In this document: positions 34,198-51,074 of the stretch, in pieces | Position numbering within the stretch: the first letter of the stretch is position 1 | Layout of the letters: each line of letters begins with the position of its first letter | DNA from: Bacteroidota bacterium | GTDB lineage: Bacteria > Bacteroidota > Ignavibacteria > UBA10030 | Direction of reading: 5' to 3' | DNA: 64,000 bases | Assembly (NCBI GenBank): GCA_035499415.1 | Contig: DATJYV010000029.1 | Span: forward strand, 589 to 64,588 | Notes under the pieces: model-generated | Database searches by the model: none | Seen by the model: only the letters and a program-made list of their open reading frames with translations | What the model was told of the DNA's origin: nothing | Made by a program: the position numbers and the translations under genes

Positions 34198-37100
34198 CCG
34201 CGCGCTCCTGGCGGCGGGTTTTTTGCGCCCGACGACTTTCAGGCTGAGATACATGAGGAAGAGCGAAGTCACGGCTGCGGAGCCGAAAATGGCGATAGCC
34301 GTCGTCGACCACAGGCTTGTCACGTTGATCCCGTAGGAGAACTCGCCGCCGACTTCAATCTCCACCGAATGTTTTCCGGCCGGCAGGAGGAGACTGTAGC
34401 AATCATTCCCCTTGAGCACGGTCGGACGGACGGACTGGCCGTCGATCGTGAGGCCGGTCGGCTCGGCGTTGAGCGATACGATAGCACGGGGGCCGGAATC
34501 GTAGACCAGCGACGCGGAACGCATACCGTATGAGACGAACTCGAGATTCCCGGTGAACGACATGATCCTCGTTTGGAGTGCATGAGTGGAGAACGCACCC
34601 GCAGCGCCGGCTGCGAACCGGACTTCATGTTTCCCTGCGGGAATGAGGTACTCATTGTCCCGGAACGGCGAGAGGATGGCGCCGTCGACCGAGATCTCGG
34701 TGACCGTTCGGGGAAGCTTGAGATTGAAGGACGTGGGGCTCTCGAAATCATAGCCGGCGGCCGTCGGACTCGAGACGACGCGGCTCGCGGCGGCATACGG
34801 AAAGAACATCATGTCCTGCGGGTTGACTGTTTCTTCGCAGTAAATGGTAAATTTCCGGGCGCCCATCGAAGCCGCACGAACGAGCTGATAGCTTTCGACG
34901 CCCGTTTGAATGAGCGTCGGGAACGGCGTAACGACATCCTTCTTCCGGAAGCTCAGGATGTTGAGGTCGAGAGAAAGCCTGCTGCTGTCGCTCACAAATT
35001 TTTGATACATCGCCCCCATCGAAGCGTAGCGCGACGGATCCGTCGACCACAGCTTCTCCGGGTCTTCGACCTGCAGGATGAAGCCGTATTTATGCTGAAG
35101 CCGGATGATCTCCGACATGTCAGCGCCGTAATATTCCCGGAGTTCCGGCGAACCGAAGCTGTCCATGCCGGTCACGATCGTCTGGAACCCGGGCTTTGAC
35201 GCGGCCACATCCTGTGCCATCTTCAGCAGAATCTCGTATACTTCCGTGAGCTTCCCAACCCGATAATCGTCGACTTCCTGGCGCACTGCCGTGTTTTCGC
35301 GCCAGTAATAGAGTGAGCTCGGGTCGAAGATCTTCACAAGGTCAATCCCGTATTTCTTGCGAAACTCTCTCTGCGCGGAAGGATGCATCGGCGCGAACAC
35401 CCGCGGGTCCTCGTACCCGCGGCCTCCCTCGAAATAAAGCTCGGCGATGTTCACGCCGTCGAAATCGTACGCGAGGAGAAGTCTCCGGTACTCATCCGTC
35501 GCAGCTTCCACACACCGGGGGTCCGTCAGCGCCATGGCGTAACGCCACATCGGCGCGGCATCTTCCCCTTTGTAATTCTTTTCCCTCCATTCGGGATGCT
35601 GGTTCCAAAACTTCTGGCTCACCTGCGGCGGTTCGAGCCACGCATAGACAAGGATCCCGTTCGCGTGCGCGACGCGAATGAGCCGGCCGTAGTCGTACGT
35701 GTATTCCCGGTATTCGCGCAGCTTGGGATAATCGTGCCAGCCGGCAACATGCACGGCCCTGATTCCCTGGCCGACCCATCGCTTGACGAGGGCCTCAATA
35801 CTGTACGTCTGGCGAAGTCCGGGGTCGAAGAAGAAATCGAGCCCGTTGCGACGCACCACCGGACGAAGCCGAAAATACGACCGGACGTATTCCACGAAAT
35901 AAGGGTAGTGGGAATATCCTTCCTGTGACGTCGGGTCGAATCGGGCTCCAAGGAAGAGCACCTTTCCTTTCCCGTACCTCTTGCCGATGGCAAGAGGCGT
36001 TTCCGACTGTTCGTCCGAACAGAACGTCTCGTCCACCTCGTCCGCGTCGAATTTGTGGACGAGCTCCCAATTGCGCCAGGCGACGGGTTCCTCGGGGAAG
36101 AGATGATCCTCGACATGGAGGATCCTCTGCGTCGTTTGCACGTAGTGGATTCCGAATTCCTCCGCAAGGTCGTTCTTTCCGTCTGTCACGAGGTTTCCAC
36201 CGTCACGAACGAACTTCGTGATCGCGTCGTACTGCTCGTCCTTGAGCGAATCGACACTGCCGTAGGGGACGATGAGAAGATTGTAGCGGGCGAGGTTGAG
36301 GTTCTGGTCCGCGAAGATCGTATCGACGCGCAGGTTGACACTCCGGAGCGCGGAGACGAACGACGCCTGGTCGTTGTACGCCGCCCCTTTGACGTGATAG
36401 TCCCACAACACCGCCGGCCGCGCTTCCTGCCAGTCCTGGTCCGACTGAAACACGGTTTCGACCGCCCGCTCGGCCCGGTGGAAGACCTTTTCTGCGAGCG
36501 TCGCCTCGTGTTCATGGAACTCGGTCGGTTCGGCTTTGTAGAACTCCCCGGGGTTCAGGGTGATATGTTTCGTGATGGCCCCTTTGAGGCGGACGTCGGA
36601 TACGATACGCTTTGTCAATTCGCCGTTCGTATCAAAGTAGGCCTCGAGGAGATATTGGTCGTCGAGCGTGATCGTATAATCCTGGGTCCCCGCCAGAATC
36701 ACCCGGTCTTTGGTCTTCACCCATTGCTTCTGCTCCGTCAGGTCGGCAAATGTATATCCCAATTTTTCGATCCCTTCGACAAGCTCGTCGAGCAGGTCGA
36801 GGTCGAGAAACGAATGAAAGAAGCAGGCCGCGTATCCGTCCCGGACGTAGAGGTTCGCCTTCGCCCCCCGGATAATGTCCTGAACCGCCCGGCGGCTCAC
36901 ATTTTTATCTGCGTCGAGCGGCACGTAGCCGAGATTCTCCGGGTAGATTCGCTGGCCGTAGATGTCCTTCTTGATGACGTACGGGAACATCTGACTGTAC
37001 TCGTAGTTCTCGATCGCCAGGCGCTGTTCCATCGCAGAGCTGAAGTATTTTGCTATCGTGCGGTAGAGCAAAGTTGAAGCCGTGTAGTGCGGCGTCTCCC

Positions 37101-39318
37101 ACAGGAGCGGATAGATTCCGTTCCGCATGCATTCCTGAATGCCGAGTTCCACTTTCTTTGAAATCCACTCCGCGGATTCATCCCGCACCGGTCTGTTGGT
37201 GCTCTCGTCCCAGAACTCAAAATCAGTGGCGGTGATCCCTTTGTACTGATGCGTGATGCCGTGCAGGACGATCGTCGCGCCGTTCTTGACCATGTATTTG
37301 AGCGCATCGACAAGCTCCGGCTTGTCGGAGAGACTGACTCGAATGCCCTGGAAGGGGTCGACGTAAAACGGGATGACGCCGACAAGAAACGGAATCCCGC
37401 GGCTCGAAAGATGGTCAGCGACATCGCGAAGCTTGTTGGGGTCATCAAGGGGAGAAACGTCTTCAATGCGGATCAGTGCAGTGTGGGACTCCTCGTGCTG
37501 TTCGTGGAGGATGTCGTGGAGCATGTCCGCAAAAAGAAGGTAGCGATCGGTTTCCGTCGCCGAGGCAAAAGGCGAATCGGCCCAGTACATGAGATTCCCC
37601 GCCTGGATAATGTACGGAATCTCGACCCGCCGACGGTTCGAGTACGCCGTCCCGAGCACACGCGCACGCCGCCGGTTCAGGACGGTGACAAGGTTTGCGT
37701 TCGGTTCCCCTTTGGTGAACGTCTTCCCCTGGTAACGGACGACATCGTAAATGCTGACCGAATCGAGCTCCGTCACCTCGAAACCGTACTGTCTGCGGAC
37801 CCGCTGCGCGCGGCTGAATTCGGCGAAGCCGGTGTTCATCCAGATGACGGGCTTCGTCGTTTGCAGGATATCGTTCGTGAATTTTTCCGGCACCGGATTT
37901 ACGGCATTGAACCCGATGTAGAACGTGTAATCGAACCCGTTCATTTGCCCCGGTACATATTGATTGACGCCGATGACGACGTTGGACGTGTTGAAATGTC
38001 CCAGGAGCTGTTGCAGTTGCCGACCGTCCCCCATCGCGAGGTTGTTCAGGTCCGAGTTTCCTTCGACGACGACGAGCACGTGCTTGGGCGCATCCGGCGC
38101 CGCCCGCATCGGGCCAAAGAGGCCGCACAGAGACAAGCCGAGGGCGAGGACGATCTTGCGAATGCGCCGAGACGGACGGAATTCGCTCACTCTTCTGTTC
38201 GATAGCCCGAGATGCTTCTTGATGAACCCCGCGATCCGTTCGGCTGCGCGCCCATCACCATAGGGATTGACGGCCGACGCCATTTTCGCATACGCGGACC
38301 GGCTTTCAAGGAGTCGACGGGTTTCCCGGACGATTCGCTCCCGTGCGAGCCCCACCAGCCGTACGGTCCCGAAGTCGACAGCTTCGGGCCGCTCCGTGAC
38401 ATTTCGGAATACCAGAATGGGTTTTCCCAACGCCGGCCCCTCCTCCTGCACACCGCCGGAATCTGTCAGGATGAGGTACGAGCGCGCCATGAGGTTTACG
38501 AAGTCTTTGTAATCAAGAGGTTCGATGAGGATGATGTTCGGAATTCCGTCGAGGATCGGATAGACCGTTTCACGGACAAGAGGATTAAGATGAACCGGAA
38601 AGACAAAAAGATGGTCGCCGAACCTGGCCGCAATCTGCTTGACGGCCCGGCACGCCCCCTCCATGGGCGCTCCCCAGTTCTCACGCCGATGCATGGTCAA
38701 CAGGATGATTCTACGTCTGCTGGCAACCGCTTTCCGAACCGCCGCGCTGCCGAATTCGTGGTCGGCGCGCACCGCGAGGTTCAGCGCATCGATGACGGAG
38801 TTTCCGGTCACGTGAATCCGGTCCGGGTTGATGTGCTCACGCAAGAGCGCGCGCCGCGCGGTCTCGGTTGGAGCGAAGTGAAGGTCGGCCAACGCGCTCG
38901 TGAGCCGTCGATTAATCTCCTCCGGAAAAGGGTTCGCCTTGTCCCCTGTGCGCAAGCCGGCTTCCACGTGGCCGACCGGAATGCCACGATAAAAAGCGGC
39001 GAGACTTCCGGCAAACGTCGTTGTCGTATCGCCCTGGACAAGTACCATGTCGGGGTGCTCGCTCTGAAGCACCGGGTCGAGTGCGGCAATTGTCCTCTCC
39101 GTGAGGGCTGCGAGCGTTTGCCGGGGCCGCATGATATTCAGATCGTGGTCGGGGTGGATTCCAAAAACATCCAAAACCTGGTCGAGCATGTGACGATGTT
39201 GGGCCGTGGCGATCGAAACCACCGAAAACAGTTTGGGCTCTTCCCTGAGCCGGAGAATGACTGGTGCGAGCTTGATCGTATCCGGCCTGGTGCCGAATAT
39301 GACGGCGATTTTTCTCAC
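34192..39318 (-). CDS. 1708-aa multidomain membrane protein: UDP-GlcNAc 2-epimerase (WecB-like) - TM - polysaccharide-deacetylase-like (DUF2334/CE4-like) - GATase1/ThuA-like - TIM-barrel glycosidase-like - beta-sandwich domains - C-terminal TM
   Basis: GTG start. Residues 1-375 carry the non-hydrolysing epimerase motifs HVEAGLRTGD and DSGGVQEE. A TM helix (IVLALGLSLCGLFG) follows. Then come IRIEDVSPLDD and LHGITHQY (deacetylase-like), NLLIVPYGSV...DGGNLV (ThuA-like), and GIRAVHVAGWHDYP...ILVYAWLEPP...FDGVNIAELYFEGG (glycosyl-hydrolase-like TIM barrel). The C-terminus has Ig-like repeats and a TM (AIAIFGSAAVTSLFLMYLSL). The antisense ORFs were rejected. Confidence 0.7.
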   Translation of the reverse strand: MRKIAVIFGTRPDTIKLAPVILRLREEPKLFSVVSIATAQHRHMLDQVLDVFGIHPDHDLNIMRPRQTLAALTERTIAALDPVLQSEHPDMVLVQGDTTTTFAGSLAAFYRGIPVGHVEAGLRTGDKANPFPEEINRRLTSALADLHFAPTETARRALLREHINPDRIHVTGNSVIDALNLAVRADHEFGSAAVRKAVASRRRIILLTMHRRENWGAPMEGACRAVKQIAARFGDHLFVFPVHLNPLVRETVYPILDGIPNIILIEPLDYKDFVNLMARSYLILTDSGGVQEEGPALGKPILVFRNVTERPEAVDFGTVRLVGLARERIVRETRRLLESRSAYAKMASAVNPYGDGRAAERIAGFIKKHLGLSNRRVSEFRPSRRIRKIVLALGLSLCGLFGPMRAAPDAPKHVLVVVEGNSDLNNLAMGDGRQLQQLLGHFNTSNVVIGVNQYVPGQMNGFDYTFYIGFNAVNPVPEKFTNDILQTTKPVIWMNTGFAEFSRAQRVRRQYGFEVTELDSVSIYDVVRYQGKTFTKGEPNANLVTVLNRRRARVLGTAYSNRRRVEIPYIIQAGNLMYWADSPFASATETDRYLLFADMLHDILHEQHEESHTALIRIEDVSPLDDPNKLRDVADHLSSRGIPFLVGVIPFYVDPFQGIRVSLSDKPELVDALKYMVKNGATIVLHGITHQYKGITATDFEFWDESTNRPVRDESAEWISKKVELGIQECMRNGIYPLLWETPHYTASTLLYRTIAKYFSSAMEQRLAIENYEYSQMFPYVIKKDIYGQRIYPENLGYVPLDADKNVSRRAVQDIIRGAKANLYVRDGYAACFFHSFLDLDLLDELVEGIEKLGYTFADLTEQKQWVKTKDRVILAGTQDYTITLDDQYLLEAYFDTNGELTKRIVSDVRLKGAITKHITLNPGEFYKAEPTEFHEHEATLAEKVFHRAERAVETVFQSDQDWQEARPAVLWDYHVKGAAYNDQASFVSALRSVNLRVDTIFADQNLNLARYNLLIVPYGSVDSLKDEQYDAITKFVRDGGNLVTDGKNDLAEEFGIHYVQTTQRILHVEDHLFPEEPVAWRNWELVHKFDADEVDETFCSDEQSETPLAIGKRYGKGKVLFLGARFDPTSQEGYSHYPYFVEYVRSYFRLRPVVRRNGLDFFFDPGLRQTYSIEALVKRWVGQGIRAVHVAGWHDYPKLREYREYTYDYGRLIRVAHANGILVYAWLEPPQVSQKFWNQHPEWREKNYKGEDAAPMWRYAMALTDPRCVEAATDEYRRLLLAYDFDGVNIAELYFEGGRGYEDPRVFAPMHPSAQREFRKKYGIDLVKIFDPSSLYYWRENTAVRQEVDDYRVGKLTEVYEILLKMAQDVAASKPGFQTIVTGMDSFGSPELREYYGADMSEIIRLQHKYGFILQVEDPEKLWSTDPSRYASMGAMYQKFVSDSSRLSLDLNILSFRKKDVVTPFPTLIQTGVESYQLVRAASMGARKFTIYCEETVNPQDMMFFPYAAASRVVSSPTAAGYDFESPTSFNLKLPRTVTEISVDGAILSPFRDNEYLIPAGKHEVRFAAGAAGAFSTHALQTRIMSFTGNLEFVSYGMRSASLVYDSGPRAIVSLNAEPTGLTIDGQSVRPTVLKGNDCYSLLLPAGKHSVEIEVGGEFSYGINVTSLWSTTAIAIFGSAAVTSLFLMYLSLKVVGRKKPAARSARR

Positions 39319-39476: not shown

Positions 39477-39938
39477 TTACTCGGTGACCGTGTAGATTAT
39501 CTTGGGCGTTTCCTGTCCGAGGGTCGACCGGGGAAAATCATAGTCGACATCGATGGTACGGGCCGAAGAGGCATCGCCGCCCGGCGAGAGCGTAATCGAT
39601 TCCCCGCGGGCGACCAACTGTTGAACCGTGACGGTTTGCATTGATGTCCGGGTTTCAACCGTCATGCGCTGCGAGGTGCCGCGATCCAAATCAGCCGTGA
39701 CCTTTGTGGATTGGGAGGGTGACCCTTGAAGCTCGAGAGATGCCCGAACGCCTTCCACAGCGCCGGAGCCCGCAAGCGGAATTGCCCGGGCGTTGCTCAG
39801 AGGGTTGATGACGAGCCGATGAGAGATGCTGACGCCGAAGACCACCTGCTGAACTGCTGAAGAGCGGACCTGACCGTGCGAATCCTGGACGATTCCGGCG
39901 GTTAACATGATCAAGAGTATGGATTTTCGGCAGCTCAC
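39477..39938 (-). CDS. Small secreted Thr/Ser-rich protein, fimbrial-subunit-like (family member 1)
   Basis: 153 aa. N-terminal signal-like segment. C-terminal beta-strand IIYTVTE. 1-nt spacing to the neighbouring gene. Confidence 0.4.
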   Translation of the reverse strand: MSCRKSILLIMLTAGIVQDSHGQVRSSAVQQVVFGVSISHRLVINPLSNARAIPLAGSGAVEGVRASLELQGSPSQSTKVTADLDRGTSQRMTVETRTSMQTVTVQQLVARGESITLSPGGDASSARTIDVDYDFPRSTLGQETPKIIYTVTE

Positions 39939-39939
39939 G

Positions 39940-40497
39940 TTAGTCCGTCAAAGTCAAGGTTACGAGACGTTCGTCTCTGTCGATTCCACCGACGCCGGAA
40001 CCTGCGACAAAGGTGTATCGGATCGACTGGTCTCTGTCGCTCCCCCTGCCGATCCCGGTCACGACATCAACAGGTACGAGGGCCGCTGAAATGTCGACAT
40101 CGCCAACGCTGCTTGCGCGTCCCGACGCGAGGTTGATCTTGAGCCGGGTTCCACTCGGCATGCTTGAGTTGATCGAGGCAACGATTTTCACATTATCGAG
40201 ATTTGTCGCTATGCTGTATTGCGAATGCTGGTCGGAAACGCTTACGTCTTCGCCCGCGTAGACCTTTTGCACCATGAGAGGCGCAGGATTTCCCGTCACT
40301 CTCAGCACTGCTATCGGCCGGACCTCGACCGTTACGATCTGCTTCACGGAGCTGTGAATCGGCTGCGGGAATGCGACCGAAATGATTGACAGGAGGGAGA
40401 GCCCTATGAACGGAAGTCTCGTCAAGGGATGCGATCGATGAGGCAAGAACGCTAAAGATGAAGCGATTGTCAAGTTTGCAATTGGCGCCGGTGGCAT
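39940..40497 (-). CDS. Small secreted pilin-like subunit (family member 2)
   Basis: The C-terminal half (...SVGDVDISAALVPVDVVTGIGRGSDRDQSIRYTFVAGSGVGG..RLVTLTLTD) parallels the 46205/46758 paralogues. The signal peptide is LPFIGLSLLSIISVAFPQ. The start is an ATG (MPPAP) or a TTG further in. Confidence 0.45.
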   Translation of the reverse strand: MPPAPIANLTIASSLAFLPHRSHPLTRLPFIGLSLLSIISVAFPQPIHSSVKQIVTVEVRPIAVLRVTGNPAPLMVQKVYAGEDVSVSDQHSQYSIATNLDNVKIVASINSSMPSGTRLKINLASGRASSVGDVDISAALVPVDVVTGIGRGSDRDQSIRYTFVAGSGVGGIDRDERLVTLTLTD

Positions 40498-40681
40498 GTT
40501 CGATCTTGGGCGAATCATGACCACAGGAAGGACAACAACCATGCCCTCCCGCCAGCTCACGCCGCGAAGGAGCAACGTCGATAACTAATTGCCAATAAGG
40601 ATGTTGGAGAGAGGTGATTCGAAGGGCTGGAAGATGGAGGGATGATCGAATTGTAGTTTCTACAATTCCACAGCTATCAGC

Positions 40682-43600
40682 TCACTGCTCGTGCCCTACT
40701 GACTTGCAGATAGCTTCAGCGGCAGCGCGCGTATTGAATTTCCCGGTAATGACCCGGTAGCGAATCCCAAGGTTGGGGATGTTCACTCGGTCGACAAAGA
40801 CTTTGCGTCCCAGGATCTTTCCCATATGCGACCCTTGGGACTGTGCCTTGGCGCGCGTTTTCCAGGACGATATTTGGACCATAAACTTCTTTGAGGGCCT
40901 ATCGAAGAATATAAGGCAAGGACCGGGCTCGTCCATCTGCGCCTTCGGCTCCTTGACTTGTTCCTGGGGAGCAGGTTGCGGCGCGTTCTCGGGTTTTTCC
41001 GGTTCTATCACCCCTTGCTGGATGATTTTGATGATCCGTTTGCGTGGTAGAATTTTGAAATCGCCCTCCGCGTGAGTTCCGGCCTTCAGCTCCAGGGCAA
41101 GCGAATCCGGTTCCATGCGATGATAGTCGGGAATATCCCCCCCTTCAATTCTGAGTGTCCAACTTCCGGGTCGCAGGTCCCCGAAAACGTACCTCCCGCG
41201 ACTGTCCGTCACGCGTCTGTGAACCTCATCCCCCTGGTATAACGCCATGAAGACTCCGGCCCTTGCTTCCTTCTCGCGATACACCGTTGCACCCAAGGAA
41301 TCCGAAGGTGCCTCCTCGTTCACTTCATACAAAACGACGGTCCCCGATACCTGCGCACTTCGTGTGACGTTGATCTGAACAGGCGTTTCCTCTCCCCCAC
41401 GTACCTCGACTTCGAGCGGCATCGGCTGGAGCGTCACGCGGTCGAGCCCGATGCTCTCTTTGTCGACCTGAACATAGATCGGCCCCGGTTTCACGCCCGG
41501 CAGGTAGAATTCTCCGTTCCCGTCGGTCACTGAAGCCGATTCTCCCGCGTTCACGAGAATATTGGGCAAGCCCACTCCCGTCTCGCCGACGACCCGGCCC
41601 CGCAACGACCCGACCGATCCAATGCGGGCGATGGGGACGTTCAACGGAATGGCATATTCAAGAAGATATGCCGTTTCGCGCGGCGTCACCGCCGGCGTGA
41701 GAAGATTCTGCCGCGCCCGGAGCGTGATCTTGTGGTTGAAGGGGAAAATATGTTCAAGCGAGAATTCGGACAACGTGCTCGTTTGTGGCGTTGCACTGTT
41801 CACCCTGCTGCCAAAAATGTTGAATTGGACCTGCGTCGCCTCCCCAAAAAGCACCCATGCCGATAAGCTGGCCGAGAGCCGCTCTTCTACTTCTCCCGTG
41901 TAAATATCCTGGTCGTTTGAGTACTCGACGGAAGCGCTGTAGTTCTGCGCGGCCGTAGGACGCACCGACGAGAATAGGGATACGTGCTGGTATGGATAAT
42001 TCTTCAGCGCGAGCTTGTCCTCGATGACGCCGTATTCGGAATTCCCGTTGATACTCACGCCGGCGAAATTGAAACCGACCCGCATCTGAAACGTGTTTTC
42101 GCTTCGCCGGTACTTCGGATTTTCCAGCAGATCATCCTGTCCGTCGTAGTGGTAGTAGAAGGACACAAGGTCAAAGTACGAAAGGCCAAGCTGGTAGAAT
42201 TGGTCGCGGGGAGCGTATATTTGATTCGTGTCGCGCGCAAGATTCCGTTCTTCGTCCCGAAAATAGGTTTCGAGCCGGATCGTCTTCGAGATTTGATACG
42301 AAATGCTGCTTGATTTGAAGCTCAGGTCGCGGTAGTATCCTCCGAAGTTCGTCCCTGCATCGATATACCGGATATCGTAGGCGAGCGACGGCTCTGTGCC
42401 GTTGAATCGGAGGGCAACTGCGTCATCGCTCTTCCCTTCCATGGCACCGCGGCCGTATTCGACGTCGACGCTGGAGTTGGTGAATGGATGCGACAGTCCC
42501 CGTAACGTGTAGAGGTCGCTCGAGTATTGATCCCTTCGGTTGAGGTAGTTGGCGCCAAGCTCGTAATCGGGGGAAAATTGATAGCTCACGAACCCTCCGC
42601 CTTCATCCTGCCGCTGGTCGATCCATCGGGTTTTGTCGTACAATCCTCCCACAGAGAACCCGGCGACCGTCGTTCTTGCGCCCGCCCCTGTCGCAAACCG
42701 TCCGCTCTCGGTCAGGGGAGAAAGCGTATAGTTCATGTCCCCGAGCTGCAGTTCCGTCGCACTGTTCACGTACGACAGGTAATATTCATCACGCAAGCCC
42801 AGAGAGGAAATCGATTGCGTCTCCGGTCCCCGCGCGAGGAATGAAAATTTGTCGTCCCGTTTCTCTGACAGACTCCCATAGCCGGATACTTCGAACTGCG
42901 TGGACCGCGCATCCTGCTCGCCCACACCCCGAAGCTTGAGCTGAATGGGATACTCTACGAACTGTTCTTCTCCCTGCGATTCCTGGGAAACAACGTCGGT
43001 CACGACCGAGGCACTCACGGCAACCGTGGAGTCCTGCCTCGAAGTCGCGATGAGCTGAAGGGTTTGATGGACTTTTCCCGCCCCCTTGTCCGTTACGACG
43101 GAGACCGGAATTTCGCGCGTGTCGCGCGGATTGAGTGCGATAACGGGGTCCGGGACCTTCGTCGCGTATCCCTCCGAAGACCTGGCTTCAAGGGTTACCG
43201 TCACCGGAGTGTTTCCGGCGTTCGTCAGGTCGAACGTTGCCGTAAAGGACCGTCCCCCAATGACAAATCGGGGCGCGTCGATGGGTTCGATTTTCAGGAG
43301 GTAAATCGTCTCCACTTTCACGGTTATCTCGGCAGCGGCCTCGTGCGCGGGCGTTGCACGGTCTTTCGCCAGATACCGGAGACGATAGAGTCCCCCCGGT
43401 ACTTCTCCGGGAACTGCAAGGGTCAGAATCCGCGCGTCGTTGGCGCCGGCTTCGAGCGTGAACTGCGACTCGGGAGTCACCAGCCGCCACTTCGTCGGAA
43501 CCTGTACCTGGGGGTCGAAGGTCTGCGTGGAGCCGGTTCGATTCGTGACGACCACGCTGAAGGAAACGATTGAGCCCGGCTTGACCGACAAGATCTCACG

Positions 43601-43732
43601 CGTCCCCGGAACGACGTCAATCTCCCCCTGCGCGCGCGAGAGACGCAGCTGACCGGTCATTGCGACCGCGAGCCCCAGAAAAAAAAACATCCGGCCGTGT
43701 CTGACCGGATGATGTCGTGTCGGTCTCCTCAA
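40682..43732 (-). CDS. Large outer-membrane, usher-like assembly protein: N-terminal Ig-like (CARDB-like) domains, central beta-barrel-like region, two CarbopepD_reg-like domains, C-terminal SPOR peptidoglycan-binding domain
   Basis: 1016 aa. TTG start with a charged n-region, or ATG at M15. The central aromatic-alternating strands are GLSYFDLVSFYYHYDG and FQMRVGFNFAG. GRVVGETGVGLPNILVNAGESASVTDGNGEFYL and VSGTVVLYEV..VTDSRGRYVFGDLRPGSWTL are transthyretin-like folds. The C-terminal FMVQISSWKTRAKAQS...YRVITGKFNTRAAAEA is a SPOR motif. The printed sequence appears 1 nt short somewhere within this gene (the track length is a multiple of 3, hand-counting is not). Confidence 0.55.
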   Translation of the reverse strand: MRRPTRHHPVRHGRMFFFLGLAVAMTGQLRLSRAQGEIDVVPGTREILSVKPGSIVSFSVVVTNRTGSTQTFDPQVQVPTKWRLVTPESQFTLEAGANDARILTLAVPGEVPGGLYRLRYLAKDRATPAHEAAAEITVKVETIYLLKIEPIDAPRFVIGGRSFTATFDLTNAGNTPVTVTLEARSSEGYATKVPDPVIALNPRDTREIPVSVVTDKGAGKVHQTLQLIATSRQDSTVAVSASVVTDVVSQESQGEEQFVEYPIQLKLRGVGEQDARSTQFEVSGYGSLSEKRDDKFSFLARGPETQSISSLGLRDEYYLSYVNSATELQLGDMNYTLSPLTESGRFATGAGARTTVAGFSVGGLYDKTRWIDQRQDEGGGFVSYQFSPDYELGANYLNRRDQYSSDLYTLRGLSHPFTNSSVDVEYGRGAMEGKSDDAVALRFNGTEPSLAYDIRYIDAGTNFGGYYRDLSFKSSSISYQISKTIRLETYFRDEERNLARDTNQIYAPRDQFYQLGLSYFDLVSFYYHYDGQDDLLENPKYRRSENTFQMRVGFNFAGVSINGNSEYGVIEDKLALKNYPYQHVSLFSSVRPTAAQNYSASVEYSNDQDIYTGEVEERLSASLSAWVLFGEATQVQFNIFGSRVNSATPQTSTLSEFSLEHIFPFNHKITLRARQNLLTPAVTPRETAYLLEYAIPLNVPIARIGSVGSLRGRVVGETGVGLPNILVNAGESASVTDGNGEFYLPGVKPGPIYVQVDKESIGLDRVTLQPMPLEVEVRGGEETPVQINVTRSAQVSGTVVLYEVNEEAPSDSLGATVYREKEARAGVFMALYQGDEVHRRVTDSRGRYVFGDLRPGSWTLRIEGGDIPDYHRMEPDSLALELKAGTHAEGDFKILPRKRIIKIIQQGVIEPEKPENAPQPAPQEQVKEPKAQMDEPGPCLIFFDRPSKKFMVQISSWKTRAKAQSQGSHMGKILGRKVFVDRVNIPNLGIRYRVITGKFNTRAAAEAICKSVGHEQ
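43678..43687. repeat. Homopolymeric A9/T9 tract inside the 5' end of the usher-like gene (codons FFF)
   Basis: cagAAAAAAAAAcat on the plus strand, i.e. ATG TTT TTT TTT CTG on the coding strand. Unusual in a 60% GC genome. Coordinates approximate. Confidence 0.8.
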
Positions 43733-43741
43733 GGCAGTCTT

Positions 43742-44569
43742 TCAAAACTTCAGGACGTACTCTGCGCCGAAAATGTCGTCCCCTCCCGCATCGACCACGA
43801 CGCGCGCCTTGTAATTGCCGGGGGTGACGCTGCTGACGTCGATCGTCTGCCGCACGGATGTCCCTGGATAAATGCGGTATTTTACTCCCTCGAATTTACC
43901 GCGCGCAACCCCTTTCTCATCGAACAAATCGACGGTGACATCGGGACGCATGACGAGCTCCCCCGTATTTTCAATATCGATCTGGAGCGCCCTCTTCCCT
44001 TCTTCCTTCGCAACCAGCTTGGCGCCGATGAAATTAACTTTCTTCGTGCCGGTGTTCGCAATCGACGTGGCGATCTGGATCCCGTACCGGATCGTCTGCA
44101 TGATCCCCATCTGCGCCTTCGTGTCCTTTTGTCGAAGGGAAGACTCGGCGGAGCCCTTCTGAATTCCCTCGACCATCAGCATGCTCCAGTAGGTTCCAAT
44201 CAGGGGCTTCCCTGTCAGATCCTTGGGGACAGCCACCGAATAGTCGATCGCCATGGTGGACGCCGGCGGCAGGGTCAGGTAGGCGGGGCTGAAGGTCACC
44301 CACTTTGCGTTCGAGCGGGGCATCGACCCGGGATCACCGTAGTTATTCGTTCCGGAATAATGAAACGTGTAGTCCGTTTGATAAACCTTCGCTTCCTGCG
44401 GCTCGTTCGTGTCGTTCCGGATGATGATTGAACCCGTATACGTTTCGCCAGGCCTCGCCATCTTGTCCTGGCTGAGCTCGCCGATGACCGAAACTTGTCC
44501 CAAGAGAAAATTCGGGACAAGGAAAAGGAAAAAGAGGGCTGTTCGTTTGAGGAGGAGGGAGAGAGTCAT
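43742..44569 (-). CDS. Periplasmic Ig-fold protein, candidate chaperone-like partner of the small subunits
   Basis: Signal peptide MTLSLLLKRTALFFLFLVPNFLLGQ (the longest ORF starts at 44647). Two beta-sandwich-like halves. The N-terminal I.I.N....P pattern is reminiscent of PapD-like N-domains. Same reading frame as the usher-like gene, separated by TGA plus 3 codons. Confidence 0.35.
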   Translation of the reverse strand: MTLSLLLKRTALFFLFLVPNFLLGQVSVIGELSQDKMARPGETYTGSIIIRNDTNEPQEAKVYQTDYTFHYSGTNNYGDPGSMPRSNAKWVTFSPAYLTLPPASTMAIDYSVAVPKDLTGKPLIGTYWSMLMVEGIQKGSAESSLRQKDTKAQMGIMQTIRYGIQIATSIANTGTKKVNFIGAKLVAKEEGKRALQIDIENTGELVMRPDVTVDLFDEKGVARGKFEGVKYRIYPGTSVRQTIDVSSVTPGNYKARVVVDAGGDDIFGAEYVLKF

Positions 44570-44576
44570 AATGTTC

Positions 44577-45029
44577 CTATTGAGCGACGAGTGTGTAGGT
44601 GATTGTATGGACATCGTTGCCGAGTTCGGCGCTGTTGCCTTGTTCAAATGTTGCCGATGCGGAGTACTTCAGGGTCGCTGTGGCATTCGTTGTCCCCGTG
44701 GCGGGGATGTTCGTGATGAAATCGGCGGCAGCCATTCCGTTCGTCAATGTCACGGCAGGGGACGCAACTCCTTTCGTCGGACTCACGGCAACCACAGAAA
44801 GCGAAAAACTCTGGCCCGAGCAAACGGTTGCCACAGTGACCTTTGAGATGGCCGTTTGCTTCTTGTATGTCAAGGTGCAGGAAGAATTTGTCACAGCGGC
44901 GGGTTCAGAGCCCGCGACTCCGGTAGTTATAGAGAGCGTCTTATTACCTCCGGAAATGCTGATTTGTTGAGCTGAGGCGCTTGACAGAAGCAATGCGACT
45001 GCGGGTAAGAGGAGCAAGAGCTTGTGCAC
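44577..45029 (-). CDS. Small secreted pilin-like subunit (family member 3)
   Basis: GTG start gives the signal peptide MHKLLLLLPAVALLLSSASAQQ (the longest ORF starts at 45143). Two Cys. C-terminal strand HTITYTLVAQ. Confidence 0.45.
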   Translation of the reverse strand: MHKLLLLLPAVALLLSSASAQQISISGGNKTLSITTGVAGSEPAAVTNSSCTLTYKKQTAISKVTVATVCSGQSFSLSVVAVSPTKGVASPAVTLTNGMAAADFITNIPATGTTNATATLKYSASATFEQGNSAELGNDVHTITYTLVAQ

Positions 45030-45033
45030 GGCT

Positions 45034-45537
45034 TTATTGGGTCGCGATAGTGAACGTGATCGTGTGCGAATCCGTCCCCGTTCCCTGGGAGGCAAGGGCA
45101 ACGGCAGTATATTGGAGCGTGCAACTTCCTGTGCTTCGGCCAAGATTGGTCAGAAAATCCTGGGCGGTGTGTGTGATGGTGACCTGGGAAGCTGCGGTCC
45201 CGACCGTGGGGTTCAGGGCAACGAGTTTGAGTGCAAAGAGTTGTGTTGTCAGATTCGTTTGCACCGTAACCTTTTTGGTACTGCTGTTGATGCCCCATTG
45301 GAGGGATGTTGCCTGGTTAGTGGCGCTCATGGTGTTCTGGCCCGCCACGGCGTTGGCCCCCGTAATTGTGAAACTGACTGCGCCTCCGGTTACCGTCACG
45401 TTGGTAATCGTCGAAACCGTGACCGTGATCGTGTGGGACGCTGATCCATACGTCTGACCCTTGGCAAGAAACAGAGGAAGGATGAAAAATATCCCCAGCA
45501 ATATCGGGCGGTTGAATCGAGGTCGAAGGGATCCCAT
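45034..45537 (-). CDS. Small secreted pilin-like subunit (family member 4)
   Basis: Signal peptide MGSLRPRFNRPILLGIFFILPLFLAKGQ. Thr/Val-rich strands. C-terminus SHTITFTIATQ. The SCTLQYTAVALASQG motif is shared with member 5. Confidence 0.45.
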   Translation of the reverse strand: MGSLRPRFNRPILLGIFFILPLFLAKGQTYGSASHTITVTVSTITNVTVTGGAVSFTITGANAVAGQNTMSATNQATSLQWGINSSTKKVTVQTNLTTQLFALKLVALNPTVGTAASQVTITHTAQDFLTNLGRSTGSCTLQYTAVALASQGTGTDSHTITFTIATQ

Positions 45538-45610
45538 ATATTCGCGAAACACGTTCGGAGCCGGTGAAATATAGCCCTCTAATCGAGGATTATCAAGTTG
45601 AGACAGTGCC

Positions 45611-46120
45611 TCAACTCCCTGTAATAGTATACGTAATCGTATGCGTCTCGCTCCCGACCCCCTTTTCAAGGGTTGCGGCCCCCGTGAATTGAAGCGTGCA
45701 GCTTCCCGCCGAGCGACTCACCCCAACGATGAGGTCGTGAGTCGAGTTGTCAGAAAACACCACGTCGCTCGAACTGACCCCCGACCCTGAACTGACGTCC
45801 TGGGCCGACAAGCGAAGGTCGAATTTTGAACCCGACCGATCGCTTTCGGCCGTAATCTTTCGATTCTCCCCGTTACTCGTCCAGACCAACCTGGTAGCGC
45901 CGCTCATCGCGGGCGAAGGGTTGGAAGTTTCCGGGTCGAAATCGGTGATCTTGAGCGTAACCGGACCGCCTGAGATATCTATCGTGTTCAGTTCGAGGAC
46001 TTGAAGCCGAATCACCTGCGTGACCGAAGCACGCTGGGCGAAAAGTGTTGCGGACCCTGCTGCGAAAATCAGGAGGGTCTGCAGTGCTCTTCGTCTTATG
46101 TCGTGTCGTTTGGTGTTCAT
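45611..46120 (-). CDS. Small secreted pilin-like subunit (family member 5)
   Basis: Signal peptide MNTKRHDIRRRALQTLLIFAAGSATLFAQ. SCTLQFTGAATLEKG motif. C-terminus THTITYTITGS. Confidence 0.45.
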   Translation of the reverse strand: MNTKRHDIRRRALQTLLIFAAGSATLFAQRASVTQVIRLQVLELNTIDISGGPVTLKITDFDPETSNPSPAMSGATRLVWTSNGENRKITAESDRSGSKFDLRLSAQDVSSGSGVSSSDVVFSDNSTHDLIVGVSRSAGSCTLQFTGAATLEKGVGSETHTITYTITGS

Positions 46121-46204
46121 CGCTCGAGGCCTCGAAGATAGAAAAACCGTAGCGGCGACAGCTGGAAAACGCACGCTACGGCTTTCTCTCTCCTCCAGAG
46201 ATTC

Positions 46205-46705
46205 TTAGTTCGTCAACGTTAAGGTGACTACTTTTGCTGTGGATGAAAGCGTACCGGCAGAAGCGTTCGCACCGAATGAGTAGGTGATCATCTGGCCGGC
46301 ATCCGCGCCTCTGTTGATACCTGTAACGACGCTCAAAGCACTGCCGGATGTTGCGTTGGAGATATCGACCGCTCCGGCGCTGGTCCCTTTGGAGCTTGCA
46401 AGGTTAATCGAAAGCGAGTAACCGGACGAAAGGGCGGCATCGAGATTCGCCGTGATCTTCACCGTATTCGCGTAGTTCTGCGTGATGCTGTAGGTCGTTG
46501 AATTGTCCGTGACGCTCGTGAGGTTATCCGATCCAGGAGTTCCGGTCGTGATCGTGAGGGCTCCCGGGTTTCCCGACGTCGAGATCTTGTAGATTGCGTT
46601 GACGGCGAGGTTCAGATTCTGCGTTGCCGTGGCTTGTGCGACTGCCGACTCGACGAGCAGAGAGCTGGCGGCGACAAGCGCGAGGGTGATGATGGTCTTT
46701 TTCAT
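46205..46705 (-). CDS. Small secreted pilin-like subunit, candidate major subunit (paralogue A)
   Basis: 166 aa. Signal peptide MKKTIITLALVAASSLLVESAVAQA. The mature N-terminus ATATQNLNLAVNAIYKIS has an alternating donor-strand-like pattern. C-terminal VVTLTLTN. About 75% identical to the next gene. Confidence 0.5.
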   Translation of the reverse strand: MKKTIITLALVAASSLLVESAVAQATATQNLNLAVNAIYKISTSGNPGALTITTGTPGSDNLTSVTDNSTTYSITQNYANTVKITANLDAALSSGYSLSINLASSKGTSAGAVDISNATSGSALSVVTGINRGADAGQMITYSFGANASAGTLSSTAKVVTLTLTN

Positions 46706-46757
46706 GATGGTATCCGTTCGATGAAGGTTGAGGTTTGGTGGTTTTTCAATTCGGTTG

Positions 46758-47252
46758 TTAGTTCGTCAGCGTCAACGTTACGGTCTTGGCCAGCGATGAC
46801 AATGTTCCGGCAGAAGCCGTTGCGGCGAAGTTGTAGGTAATGACCTGGGCTGCATCCGCACCGCGCTGAATGTTCGTGACCATGTTGACGGCGCTGGACG
46901 ACGTCGCATTGGAGATGTCGACACTTCCCGCACTCGTGCCTTTGGTGCTCGCAAGGGTCAACTTGAGCGTATAACCAGCAGCAAGGGCTGCGTCAAGGTT
47001 CGCCGTGATCTTCACAGTATTACCATAGTTCTGTGTAATGCTGTAATTCGTTGATGCATCGGAAACGGACGTCAGGTTGTCGCTCCCGGCTGTGCCTGTC
47101 GTGATCGTGAGCGGGCTCGGGTTGCCGGACGTCGCTATTTTGTAAACAGTGTTGACTGCAAGCGTGACGCTCTGAGTCGCAGTGGCCTGAGCCAGCAGAG
47201 TCTGAACTCCTGCGAAACCGAGAAGAGAGAGGGTTGCGATTAACTTCTTCAT
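46758..47252 (-). CDS. Small secreted pilin-like subunit, candidate major subunit (paralogue B), first gene of the operon
   Basis: Start trimmed to MKKLIATLSLLGFAGVQTLLAQA, preceded by an AAGGAG RBS. The mature ATATQSVTLAVNTVYKIA...TVTLTLTN parallels paralogue A. Confidence 0.5.
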   Translation of the reverse strand: MKKLIATLSLLGFAGVQTLLAQATATQSVTLAVNTVYKIATSGNPSPLTITTGTAGSDNLTSVSDASTNYSITQNYGNTVKITANLDAALAAGYTLKLTLASTKGTSAGSVDISNATSSSAVNMVTNIQRGADAAQVITYNFAATASAGTLSSLAKTVTLTLTN

Positions 47253-47379
47253 GACGAACTCCTTTTGTCTGGATTGGTGGATCGTTTTGTTTCCCGTATA
47301 ACCATCAATCCCCATGCCAATCCAGTTTTTGAACGAAAAATGGCGTTTTCCCAGATACGATTTGTTTTTCGTGAATTGA

Positions 47380-47399: not shown

Positions 47400-47551
47400 A
47401 TAGGATTATGCTGTATTATAAAGCAAAAATGCCTCAATACCAAAATATGATAGAACTATTTGACTCTTTTTGAGACATGTCACCAGCTATCAGAGTAGCA
47501 ACATACCACAAATTCTGGCCATTATGTAATGATTTCTGCGGTCTGATCTCC

Positions 47552-47567
47552 TGGCATATCGATTGCT
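47552..47567 (+). promoter_or_regulatory. Sigma54 (-24/-12) promoter TGGCAT-N5-TTGCT
   Basis: cTGGCATatcgaTTGCTg gives the exact GG-N10-GC spacing. It lies about 36 nt upstream of a GGAGG RBS and the ATG at 47603. Confidence 0.55.
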
Positions 47568-47602
47568 GTCTTCAATTGAAACAAACTGCCGGAAGGAGGA
47601 TT

Positions 47603-47893
47603 ATGGCGCAGAGTAAGCTCAGAATCATGTCTCCGGAAGAAGCGGTACGGGAGTACCATGTTCGGACAGAAATCGCGACCCGGTTGTCGCACGAGTTCCG
47701 GACTCCGCTCACTTCCATCATCGGCTACGCAGAGACCATCATGTGCAGTCCGGACTTAACAGCAGAACAGCGAGACGAGTTTGCAGCTCTTATAAAGAAG
47801 GAGGGGGAACGGCTCGTGAGACTTGTGACCTTGATTGTCGAACAATCGATTCAGGGTTCGGCGTCACAGTCCGATCCATCCATATTTAAATGA
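47603..47893 (+). CDS. Free-standing HisKA (DHp) domain protein, 96 aa, with no ATP-binding domain
   Basis: MAQSKL...RLSHEFRTPLTSIIGYAETI carries a canonical H-box with the phospho-acceptor His, and the protein ends after the four-helix region. The longest ORF (from 47477) has no RBS. The stop lies 20 nt before the activator gene, in a different frame. Confidence 0.55.
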   Translation: MAQSKLRIMSPEEAVREYHVRTEIATRLSHEFRTPLTSIIGYAETIMCSPDLTAEQRDEFAALIKKEGERLVRLVTLIVEQSIQGSASQSDPSIFK

Positions 47894-47912
47894 CACGAAA
47901 GAGAGTCTTCCC

Positions 47913-49298
47913 ATGCCATCAAACCATCTCATATATATTGTCGACGACGAGACATCCATCGCCAAGCTGCTGGAAGTCTGGGTCAGCCAGAAATGGGGGT
48001 ACCGAGCGCGGCTCTTTTCGGACGGCGAAACGTGTCTTCATGCCCTCGATGAGGGGGCGGACCTGGTTCTTCTCGACCTGATGCTGCCCGGTATCGATGG
48101 TGTCGCCGTGCTCCAGGAAATCAAGCGCCAGAAGCCGGAGCTTCCTGTCATCGTGCTGTCCGCCCAGGCAAAGATCGAGGTTGCCCTTCAGACATTGAAA
48201 TTAGGCGCAACGGACTATTTCAGCAAACCCGTTGACCTCCCGAAGCTCGAAATCGGCATCAAGAATGCCCTGCGACTTGCGGACTTGACGCGGGAAGTCG
48301 AGCGTCTTCGTCAAGACGCCGAAACGAAGGTCCACTTCGATCATATTGTGGCCCAGAGCGGCGAGATGGCTGACGTTTTCAAGCTCGTCTCAAAGGTCAA
48401 GGAGAGCGACATTCCGGTACTTATTCTCGGCGAGAGCGGAACCGGAAAGGAGCTCATCGCCCGGGCCGTCCATTTCAACAGCGGCCGCAAAGACAGACCG
48501 TTCGTTGTCGTCAACTGCGCTTCGATTCCCAAAGACCTTCTCGAAAGCGAGCTCTTCGGGCACGAGCGTGGAGCGTTCACCGGCGCCATCCAGCGCAGGG
48601 TCGGAAAATTCGAACAGGCAAACGGAGGGACGATCTTCCTCGACGAAATTGGGGAGCTCGACCTGAGCCTGCAGTCAAAACTCCTGCGGGCGATTCAGGA
48701 AAAGCAGTTCAACCGAGTCGGGGGGAATGATGTGATCACGACGACCGCGCGTCTTATTTCCGCGACAAACCGGGATTTGCGTGAGGAAGTAAAGCAGAAG
48801 CGATTCCGGGAGGATCTGTACTTCCGTCTCTCGACGTTTCCCGTCATGCTCCCGCCTCTCCGGGAAAGAAAGTCGGATATCGTCCTTCTTGCCGAACACT
48901 TTCTGCGGCAGTTTTCCGAGGAGCAGAAGAAACCCCACCTGCGGTTTTCACGAAAGGCGCTCGACGACCTTTACAACTACCCGTGGCCCGGAAATGTGCG
49001 CGAGCTGGAGAATGCAATCCAACGGGGCGTCGTCCTTGCCGACGCGGCGGAATTGACCGAGCGCGAACTGCCCCTCTCAGTCCAGACATATTCGGGGTTT
49101 GAATCGACGGAGCGTCCCGCATTTTCGTTCGCCAAGAGCAACGACGTCGTCGTCCCTTTCGAAAAGTTGAAGGAGGACGCGATAAGGAACGCGCTGCGCA
49201 TCACCCACGGGAACATCGTCCAGGCGGCCCAACGCCTCAAGATCGGCCGGGCGACGCTTTACCGCTTGATGCAAAAATACAAAATCGAGGCGGACTAG
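47913..49298 (+). CDS. Sigma54-dependent response regulator (NtrC family: REC - AAA+ sigma54-interaction - Fis-type HTH)
   Basis: REC with LLDLMLPGIDG. Walker A GESGTGKE. GAFTGA motif (ESELFGHERGAFTGA). C-terminal HTH (IVQAAQRLKIGRATLYRLMQKY). Start trimmed to MPSNHLIYIVDDE (the longest ORF starts at 47835). Confidence 0.85.
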   Translation: MPSNHLIYIVDDETSIAKLLEVWVSQKWGYRARLFSDGETCLHALDEGADLVLLDLMLPGIDGVAVLQEIKRQKPELPVIVLSAQAKIEVALQTLKLGATDYFSKPVDLPKLEIGIKNALRLADLTREVERLRQDAETKVHFDHIVAQSGEMADVFKLVSKVKESDIPVLILGESGTGKELIARAVHFNSGRKDRPFVVVNCASIPKDLLESELFGHERGAFTGAIQRRVGKFEQANGGTIFLDEIGELDLSLQSKLLRAIQEKQFNRVGGNDVITTTARLISATNRDLREEVKQKRFREDLYFRLSTFPVMLPPLRERKSDIVLLAEHFLRQFSEEQKKPHLRFSRKALDDLYNYPWPGNVRELENAIQRGVVLADAAELTERELPLSVQTYSGFESTERPAFSFAKSNDVVVPFEKLKEDAIRNALRITHGNIVQAAQRLKIGRATLYRLMQKYKIEAD

Positions 49299-50414: not shown

Positions 50415-51074
50415 CTAGGAAACCAAACCGCTTTTGATCGCTTTGGCCACGGCTTCCGCCCGGGAGCGGACGTGGAGCTTTGCGTAGATATTACGGAGGT
50501 GGAAACTCACGGTATTCACGCTGACGAAAAGTTTGTCCGCAATCGCCTTGTACGTATAACCGTCGATGAGGGCCTGGAGAACCTCGAGCTCCCTTTTGGA
50601 GAGCGTTGAAGAGAGACTGTCGGCCTTCTGCGTCTGGAAATAGGCGAGCACCTTGCGTGCCACCTCGGTCGACATCGGGGCCCCGCCGGCGTATGCATCC
50701 CGTATGGCGGCCAACAGAGCTTCCGGAGAGGTCTTTTTCAGGAGATATCCCACCGCCCCCTGCCGGAGCGATTGAAATATCTTTTCGTCGTCGCTGTGCA
50801 CCGTCAACATCAGACACTGAATATTGGGATACCGCCGCTTCACAATTTCCACGCACTCAATGCCCGATTTCTCCGGAAGACCGATATCCATCAAAACGAC
50901 ATCCGGCGGATCGTCTTCGAGGATGGCTAACGCATCGCCACAGCTCCCATGGGCGCCGGTGCATGCAAATCCGGGGGAATGCTCAATGACCCAGCGAAGG
51001 CCATTGCGGATTTCAATATCGTCATCGATGATTGCGACCCGGATTGCGGGAATTTGGCCGTCGTGTTCCTGCAT
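50415..51074 (-). CDS. NarL/FixJ-family response regulator (REC plus LuxR-type HTH)
   Basis: REC (IRVAIIDDD...VVLMDIGLP) and a C-terminal LuxR HTH (LSKRELEVLQALIDGYTYKAIADKLFVSVNTVSFHLRNIYAKL). Confidence 0.85.
   Translation of the reverse strand: MQEHDGQIPAIRVAIIDDDIEIRNGLRWVIEHSPGFACTGAHGSCGDALAILEDDPPDVVLMDIGLPEKSGIECVEIVKRRYPNIQCLMLTVHSDDEKIFQSLRQGAVGYLLKKTSPEALLAAIRDAYAGGAPMSTEVARKVLAYFQTQKADSLSSTLSKRELEVLQALIDGYTYKAIADKLFVSVNTVSFHLRNIYAKLHVRSRAEAVAKAIKSGLVS

Follow-up and report, generated by a model that had tools for sequence, protein, structure and literature searches.

A conserved hairpin and T run in the first codons of an usher-like gene: a probable transcription terminator embedded in coding sequence

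Introduction

In the pap operon of Escherichia coli a terminator follows papA, and terminators or attenuators within such operons set the ratio of subunits to assembly proteins. In Neisseria, Haemophilus, Helicobacter and Campylobacter, surface-structure genes carry homopolymer contingency loci in their 5' coding regions, which act by slipped-strand mispairing. Here we describe a hairpin followed directly by a run of nine T (T9), both lying within the first codons of an usher-like gene in a pilus-like gene cluster. The cluster is carried by a stretch of 64,000 nucleotides from a Bacteroidota bacterium (GTDB lineage Ignavibacteria, UBA10030; assembly GCA_035499415.1, contig DATJYV010000029.1, positions 589 to 64,588), which was analysed at its full length and is called the window in the following. 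A preliminary description of this DNA had proposed the T9 run as a slipped-strand phase-variation switch. We consider it probable that the run is instead the U-tract of a conserved intrinsic (Rho-independent) terminator or attenuator that is embedded in coding sequence.

Several described systems share parts of this arrangement. In the pil1 operon of Streptococcus gallolyticus, slippage at a leader-peptide repeat (GCAGA) shifts the position at which the ribosome stops, and through this the anti-termination of the entire operon is controlled (Danne et al. 2014, PMC3894217). In ribosome-coupled attenuation of the pyrBI type, according to the passages that cite it in PMC4824070 and PMC5021804, a leader open reading frame (ORF) reads through the attenuator hairpin. 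Transcriptional slippage that is stimulated by a stem-loop is exemplified by the Roseiflexus IS630 element (Penno et al. 2015, reviewed in PMC5009743), and slippage at T9 by Thermus dnaX and Shigella mxiE.

Results

The hairpin and the T run

The window has a GC content of 56.9%, not the 60% that had earlier been given for the genome. On its plus strand the run reads as A9 at 43679..43687, and the minus (coding) strand reads CGG ATG TTT TTT TTT CTG. The homopolymer reported in the preliminary description is directly legible in the sequence; its span of 43678-43687 is one letter too long, since position 43678 is a G and lies outside the run. The features on which the argument rests are as follows.

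43711..43688, minus strand: hairpin CATCCGGTC-AGACAC-GGCCGGATG, directly 5' of T9, nucleotides +22 to +45 from the TTG start codon
43687..43679, minus strand: T9 run, codons 16-18 (Phe-Phe-Phe) of the usher-like gene, nucleotides +46 to +54 from the TTG
43730..43732, minus strand: TTG start codon, 9 nucleotides past the TGA stop of the chaperone-like gene (43744..43742) and 8 codons ahead of the Pro that opens the hairpin core
40682..43732, minus strand: usher-like ORF, 1016 amino acids from the TTG at 43732, with the ATG at 43690 as codon 15

The hairpin comprises nine base pairs (six G-C, one G-U) and a six-nucleotide loop, with a calculated energy of -15.4 kcal/mol. Its codons 8-15 encode H-P-V-R-H-G-R-M, and T9 begins at the first base after the stem. 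Hairpin and T run are thus encoded by codons 8-18 of the usher-like gene itself, so that the ORF overlaps the terminator-like element. In a scan for terminator-like sites, hairpin plus T9 was the top site of the operon, and three further scans of the window yielded nothing comparable, which makes it the most canonical site of this kind in the 64 kb. We read the run here as both the U-tract of this terminator-like element and a slippage-prone run. An Rfam scan of 43400-44000 at a permissive threshold gave no match, and no sigma-70 promoter that could bypass the terminator was seen within the junction.

After T9, the longest homopolymer of the 64-kb window, come one T8 (51251-51258) and four 7-mers. 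By expectation the window would contain between about 0.1 (independent bases) and 0.4 (first-order Markov model) runs of at least nine A or T. It is not this count that excludes a chance origin of the run, but the presence of a T7 to T10 run at the same codons in every orthologous lineage compared.

Conservation and covariation

We gathered 37 loci from genome and metagenome collections and compared 25 distinct orthologous lineages, whose usher-like proteins are 35-46% identical to that of the window. This comparison with orthologues, which the preliminary description had suggested, yielded a homologous run of T7 to T10 in 25/25 lineages: T7 in 1, T8 in 19, T9 in 3 and T10 in 2. The run stands directly 3' of the hairpin site in all 25, and a hairpin of -8 to -17 kcal/mol is predicted in 23 of them. 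The junction DNA is nearly invariant (ATCCGG-N10-CCGGAT, then CGG ATT TTT TTT).

Helix counts were made on a gap-free alignment of 54 columns (alignment A3). In this alignment 84% of the helix cells are paired, a share that falls to 23-50% once the partner is slid. Two inner pairs vary and yet remain paired: 12 sequences have C-G and 7 have U-A at pair 24-31, and pair 23-32 occurs as U-A (12 sequences), U-G (9) and C-G (3). At the codon level, the synonymous third position of Val varies with the residue encoded three codons further on, with GTC accompanying Asp or Gly and GTT accompanying Asn (Fisher p = 0.007, without phylogenetic correction).

Chance combined with codon bias was rejected as the origin of the element by a codon control on a whole-gene codon alignment with 131 amino-acid columns that are at least 90% conserved. 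At only 4 of these 131 columns is a single codon used in at least 90% of the sequences, and all four lie in the element: Pro CCG (25/25), Arg CGG (23/25) and two Phe TTT codons (25/25 each). Over all 131 columns the mean frequency of the top codon is 0.50, and TTT accounts for only 35% of the Phe codons in the window.

Searches with a covariance model of the element gave a single copy at each orthologous locus, no further match in the window and none in the loci of distant homologues. A generic repeated element of the REP (repetitive extragenic palindromic) kind was rejected on the basis of this single copy. The distant homologues themselves (31-33% identical; metagenome-assembled genomes (MAGs) labelled Verrucomicrobiota, Clostridia and others) possess signal peptides of the ordinary kind and lack both T run and hairpin. 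A separate observation concerns one locus from a MAG labelled Chitinophaga (L012), where TCG TTT TTT TTC (T8) stands at the equivalent place, at about 1800..1830, without the CCGG hairpin. Its upstream region is different and its reading frame across the run is ambiguous.

Start codon of the usher-like gene

The homologues of the usher-like protein that were found first (n = 15, one 99% identical and the rest 35-46%) mostly reach about 14 residues upstream of the window's ATG at 43690, with the consensus M-K-T-x-L-R-H-N-P-V-R-x-G-R-I-F-F, in which a conserved Ile is aligned to Met15 of the window. Because of this extension the run occupies codons 16-18. The preliminary description had left a choice between codons 2-4 and 16-18, and only the latter agrees with the orthologue alignment, which puts the start at TTG 43732. 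In 24/25 lineages a start codon is located exactly 8 codons before the Pro of the motif (TTG in 14, GTG in 9, ATG in 1); it is non-ATG in 23 of those 24. The stop of the upstream gene usually lies 9 nucleotides before the usher-like start codon, and an added lineage (L053) has the same start-codon position together with the same hairpin and T run. Taken together, the alignments support TTG 43732 as the true start.

Gene callers disagree on this start. The window's public record (HTP79081.1, 992 amino acids, annotated as 'SPOR domain-containing protein') begins at Met25 (ATG 43658..43660), past T9. This start drops the hydrophobic core of the signal peptide, so the record loses its signal peptide; other gene callers choose the ATG at codon 15.

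Several short forms in the databases were examined as possible frameshift alleles and rejected. The 992-residue form is the window's own protein called from Met25, the 972-residue forms from Ignavibacterium have an intact T8 (L051), and the variation of start calls within the T7 lineage rests on identical DNA. These forms are start-calling differences and not frameshifts, because the DNA is intact or identical. A peptide of 46 residues (P0067) was likewise discarded as a frameshift product, being unrelated.

Proposed mechanism

Based on the conservation of the element we propose the following mechanism. The GC-rich hairpin is encoded by codons 8-15, the n-region of the signal peptide, and the U-tract by the Phe codons 16-18. 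Most transcripts coming from the subunit and chaperone-like genes would end at 43687..43679, and the usher-like gene would be expressed, together with two distal genes, from read-through at a small fraction of the upstream level. The element would in this way separate genes whose products are needed in bulk, namely subunits and chaperone-like protein, from the gene for the assembly platform. The weak TTG or GTG start, nearly universal and at a constant distance, would suit a gene whose expression is held down on purpose.

Read-through may involve the ribosome. A ribosome arriving from the upstream gene, whose stop lies 9 nucleotides before the TTG, could re-initiate and melt the hairpin, which starts at +22, just past the footprint of an initiating ribosome. 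The fixed geometry suggests, as a conjecture, that read-through is coupled to the ribosome. Ribosomes that are tightly coupled to transcription are known to suppress terminator hairpins (PMC5021804). In E. coli, a terminator located 30 bp past a start codon lost little of its efficiency, since at that point the first ribosome is still too far behind to reach the polymerase (PMC4824070); this result counts in favor of the embedded terminator.

A more far-reaching version, a 'coding terminator', is put forward only tentatively. Here the element would be a translation-coupled attenuator that sets the ratio of subunits to usher, and its U-tract would have been co-opted as an ON/OFF slippage switch in those lineages in which it grew to T9/T10 and the hairpin decayed. 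This version includes the fixed 21 nucleotides between a nearly always non-ATG start and the element, and would place the system in an undescribed chaperone-usher-like pilus family of Ignavibacteriota-type bacteria.

Slippage on the run, in DNA or by RNA polymerase, would be a side property of the element, and the ON/OFF polymorphism described below would arise where the run grew to T9 or T10 and the hairpin decayed.

A number of points weigh against an embedded terminator. Terminator-like sites in the other three scans of the window are no commoner than in shuffled sequence, and the use of such terminators by this organism is assumed from the general behaviour of bacterial RNA polymerase. The covariation consists of two inner pairs only, with statistics that ignore phylogeny; the four core pairs (CCGG/CCGG) are invariant and therefore uninformative on structure, and the constant spacing of the CCGG blocks leaves room for a protein-bound DNA palindrome. 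The T9/T10 polymorphism shows that slippage has biological consequences in at least one lineage. Termination, its efficiency and any role of the ribosome are what we infer from sequence comparison, and a terminator inside an expressed gene requires a read-through mechanism, which at present is conjectured. We nevertheless favor the embedded terminator over a contingency repeat, because an intrinsic terminator predicts a conserved element of hairpin plus U-tract and a contingency repeat does not.

Run-length variation and alternative explanations

The first alternative is the one proposed in the preliminary description: slipped-strand phase variation would be the selected function in the window, with T9 reversibly switching the usher-like gene ON and OFF. 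We regard it as unlikely. The rank of T9 as the longest homopolymer of the window speaks for it, as does the effect of a length change. In a frame check of the window's gene, T8 instead of T9 gave a product of 24 amino acids and T10 one of 38, which bears out the earlier statement that gain or loss of one T would truncate the assembly-platform protein.

Run lengths were taken from assembly consensus sequences, not from reads. The window's lineage was represented by seven contigs, the window and six others that have the identical chaperone-like protein or the usher-like protein. All seven, from several samples, carry T9 in frame, despite 3-25 single-nucleotide polymorphisms separating the others from the window. 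The T7 lineage is uniform in 10/10 contigs from 10 samples and the Ignavibacterium T8 lineage in 3/3 contigs. Only L032 and L037 have an interrupted gene; the frame is intact in the window and in 22 further lineages, and no OFF allele was found in these 23. Moreover, at T8 the run of most lineages is on the short side for a contingency tract of A or T.

L032 and L037 both carry T10. The upstream frame stops after 46 amino acids and a remainder of 841 amino acids follows in the +1 frame; deleting one T gives a family-typical N-terminus. Between the two contigs synonymous divergence (dS) is 0.15 and nonsynonymous divergence (dN) 0.03 over 893 codons, and the resulting dN/dS of 0.20 indicates that the gene is under purifying selection, a point in favor of switching. 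The corresponding protein cluster contains the 841-residue forms (P0044 on at least 24 contigs) and 909-residue forms (P0046 and P0047) on 4 contigs. At the DNA level T10 is present in L037 and L045-L050 and T9 in L043 and L044. L044 (T9) shows 0 mismatches except for one T, both to L045 over 5526 nucleotides and to L037 over 5731 nucleotides, and T9 in this sister lineage was found on two haplotype backgrounds. The occurrence of T9 in 4 contigs and of T10 in at least 24, with some of them otherwise identical, speaks for a switch. The hairpin of this polymorphic lineage, however, is degenerate (3' arm CGTCGT, -3.3 kcal/mol), which makes it unlike the window. Slippage at the homologous run thus does occur and has consequences, though only in the lineage that has the longest run and no longer has the hairpin.

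Phase variation further leaves the hairpin, the frozen CGG and CCG codons and the fixed distance of the start codon unexplained. What stands of the proposed switch is the T9/T10 variation in one sister lineage; the window's own lineage, with T9 in all 7 contigs, does not bear it out. Phase variation has therefore been demonstrated for the homologous run of one lineage, and for the window's T9 it is no more than a possibility.

The second alternative seeks the conservation elsewhere, in a palindromic DNA operator (TCCGG-N10-CCGGA), in a hairpin that tunes translation initiation, or in the protein motif NPVRxxRIFF. Together these are improbable. The two CCGG blocks with their constant spacing and invariant core would suit an operator, which predicts neither the pair-preserving changes in the inner stem nor a one-sided T run; a protein-binding palindrome is disfavoured by the pair-preserving changes. 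The position at +22, beyond the initiating ribosome, would suit a translational hairpin, which leaves TTT TTT in 25/25 lineages unexplained. The protein motif is located in the n-region of the signal peptide, but selection on protein does not freeze synonymous sites.

The third alternative, programmed or tolerated transcriptional slippage, holds that the hairpin makes RNA polymerase add or drop a U and so sets the fraction of in-frame mRNA; in the T10 lineages expression would require such slippage. We give it very little credence. In Roseiflexus IS630, too, the hairpin stands immediately upstream of the slippery run, and A or T runs of nine slip efficiently in vivo (both in the review PMC5009743). 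The two T10 sub-lineages (dS 0.15) both keep an intact ORF. On the other hand, the gene is in frame in 23/25 lineages, so that slippage could only lower the yield there, and the one lineage that would need slippage has the degenerate hairpin and contains T9 alleles at the DNA level.

Ribosomal -1 frameshifting was rejected, as the structure lies upstream of the slippery run and not downstream, a geometry that belongs to termination or polymerase slippage (PMC5009743).

The usher-like protein

Pfam assigns Ig-like domains (FixG_C, NEW3), two CarboxypepD_reg domains and a C-terminal SPOR domain to the usher-like protein. In an AlphaFold2 model (predicted local distance difference test, pLDDT, of 78) a signal peptide and two beta-sandwiches precede a large beta-barrel (residues ~258-703), which is followed by two more beta-sandwiches and then the SPOR domain. 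The best bacterial Foldseek hits of this model are FimD and PapC, with an E-value of about 1e-11 and a low template modelling (TM) score of 0.25-0.35. The usher family (PF00577) was found neither by Pfam nor by NCBIfam, and a PDB search with a sequence profile of the family gave no match. On the strength of the predicted fold, 'usher-like', the term of the preliminary description, is a reasonable name at fold level, which does not imply membership of the classical family.

Two length differences were noticed in this protein. The 909-residue form of the L032/L037 lineage ends before the SPOR domain, and several other homologues of 883-892 amino acids are similarly short. The SPOR anchor may, in view of these short forms, be dispensable or lost in a section of the family. 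In the Pro/Lys/Gln-rich linker before SPOR (~40830..40900), the window lacks the four-residue unit PKVQ that is present in all six close relatives, a 12-nucleotide indel.

Neighbouring genes

The usher-like gene is flanked by the following genes of the same orientation.

43742..44569, minus strand: chaperone-like gene, 275 amino acids from ATG 44569, with a signal peptide or anchor and two Ig-like domains
44577..47252, minus strand: five small secreted subunit-like genes upstream of the usher-like gene, with approximate ORFs at 46758..47252, 46205..46705, 45611..46174, 45034..45669 and 44577..45143
39940..40575 and 39477..39938, minus strand: two downstream subunit-like ORFs, distal to the terminator-like element

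The chaperone-like protein belongs to a family of about 800 homologues and is 62-74% identical among the best 120 homologues listed. It had no Pfam match. Its AlphaFold2 model shows two Ig-like domains (pLDDT 85.5); the best Foldseek hit is WxLIP, and the chaperones CfaA, CsuC, Caf1M, FimC and PapD were also found (TM ~0.5).

The five upstream subunit-like ORFs have signal-peptide-like N-termini and similar C-terminal motifs; none of these five matched Pfam or NCBIfam. The gene order with two downstream subunit-like ORFs is also present in close relatives, and the related loci come from MAGs labelled Ignavibacteriota, Ignavibacteriaceae or Bacteroidota. A 123-residue antisense ORF at 44599..44970 (plus strand), opposite 44577..45143 (minus strand), is called in close relatives. 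This call looks wrong, because the minus-strand ORF of 188 amino acids ends in ...HTITYTLVAQ, which is common to the neighbouring subunit-like proteins.

About 50 nucleotides upstream of the first subunit ATG (47252) there is a sigma-54-like -24/-12 motif, TGGCATGGGGATTGAT, at 47304..47319 (minus strand), with two mismatches to the consensus; the number of such motifs in the window is no higher than chance. Divergent from the subunit genes, at 47477..49298 (plus strand), lie an ORF with a HisKA domain and an NtrC-type sigma-54 activator. The pilus-like cluster is followed immediately downstream by a 1708-residue ORF (34192..39318, minus strand) in which UDP-GlcNAc 2-epimerase, DUF2334 and GH42-type trimerisation domains are combined; in the relative L040 this ORF has the same location.

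The second homopolymer of the window, which the preliminary description had located near 51251-51258 in a sensor-kinase gene, is indeed an A8 on the coding strand (51258..51251, minus strand). The tract reads GAG AAA AAA AAC (E-K-K-N). The gene encodes a Reg_prop/Y_Y_Y/HisKA_3 sensor kinase, and the tract belongs to its HATPase_c domain, with some 43 codons left to the stop. Next comes a LuxR-type response regulator, at 50415..51074.

Discussion

The element would be a case of overlapping codes, in which an RNA signal dictates the peptide NPVRxxRIFF and freezes synonymous sites in proteins that are otherwise about 40% identical. Peptide motifs that are driven by RNA in this way can be mistaken for features of the protein, and terminators embedded in coding sequence escape an annotation that is restricted to intergenic regions. 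The element also provides a handle on the dosing of a widespread, uncharacterised chaperone-usher-like surface-fibre system, and the metagenome data show how the U-tract of a terminator can become a frameshift switch. In general terms we see known kinds of regulation in a new arrangement, within an uncharacterised pilus-like system and with a function that we infer from sequence.

Comparison with known systems

The element shares with attenuators of the pap type a sense hairpin and U-tract in a pilus-type operon, located between highly needed genes and the gene for the assembly platform. It differs in that it is not intergenic: the probable terminator lies within the first 18 codons of the gene it would regulate and constrains the signal peptide. 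It also follows the chaperone-like gene and not the gene for a major subunit, and classical chaperone-usher pili are no more than distant relatives of the window's system.

Among described pilus systems pil1 of S. gallolyticus comes nearest, with similar components but different wiring. In pil1 a premature stem-loop terminator controls pilus genes, and a translated ORF upstream of or over it and repeat slippage both matter; the window has a probable counterpart of each. In the window, however, it is the U-tract of the probable terminator itself that is prone to slip, and the translated ORF is the structural gene, whose frame is broken by a slip.

With attenuation of the pyrBI type the element has in common that an ORF overlaps a terminator or, in the window, a probable terminator, so that a close ribosome could block formation of the hairpin. 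Unlike pyrBI, the window has neither a separate leader peptide nor recognised pause/UTP logic, and the E. coli terminator 30 bp past a start codon was barely relieved by translation (PMC4824070).

Slippage of the Roseiflexus IS630 type has a comparable geometry, with the hairpin of the nascent RNA immediately upstream of a U-rich run within coding sequence. IS630, dnaX and mxiE need slippage for the full product, whereas the gene of the window is in frame without it.

Contingency loci, finally, resemble the element in that a mononucleotide repeat stands in the 5' part of a gene for a surface organelle, and the T9/T10 polymorphism of the sister lineage adds to the likeness. The run of the window type differs from them in keeping its position and sequence across a deep clade together with a hairpin, in being usually T8 and in being monomorphic in the window's lineage.

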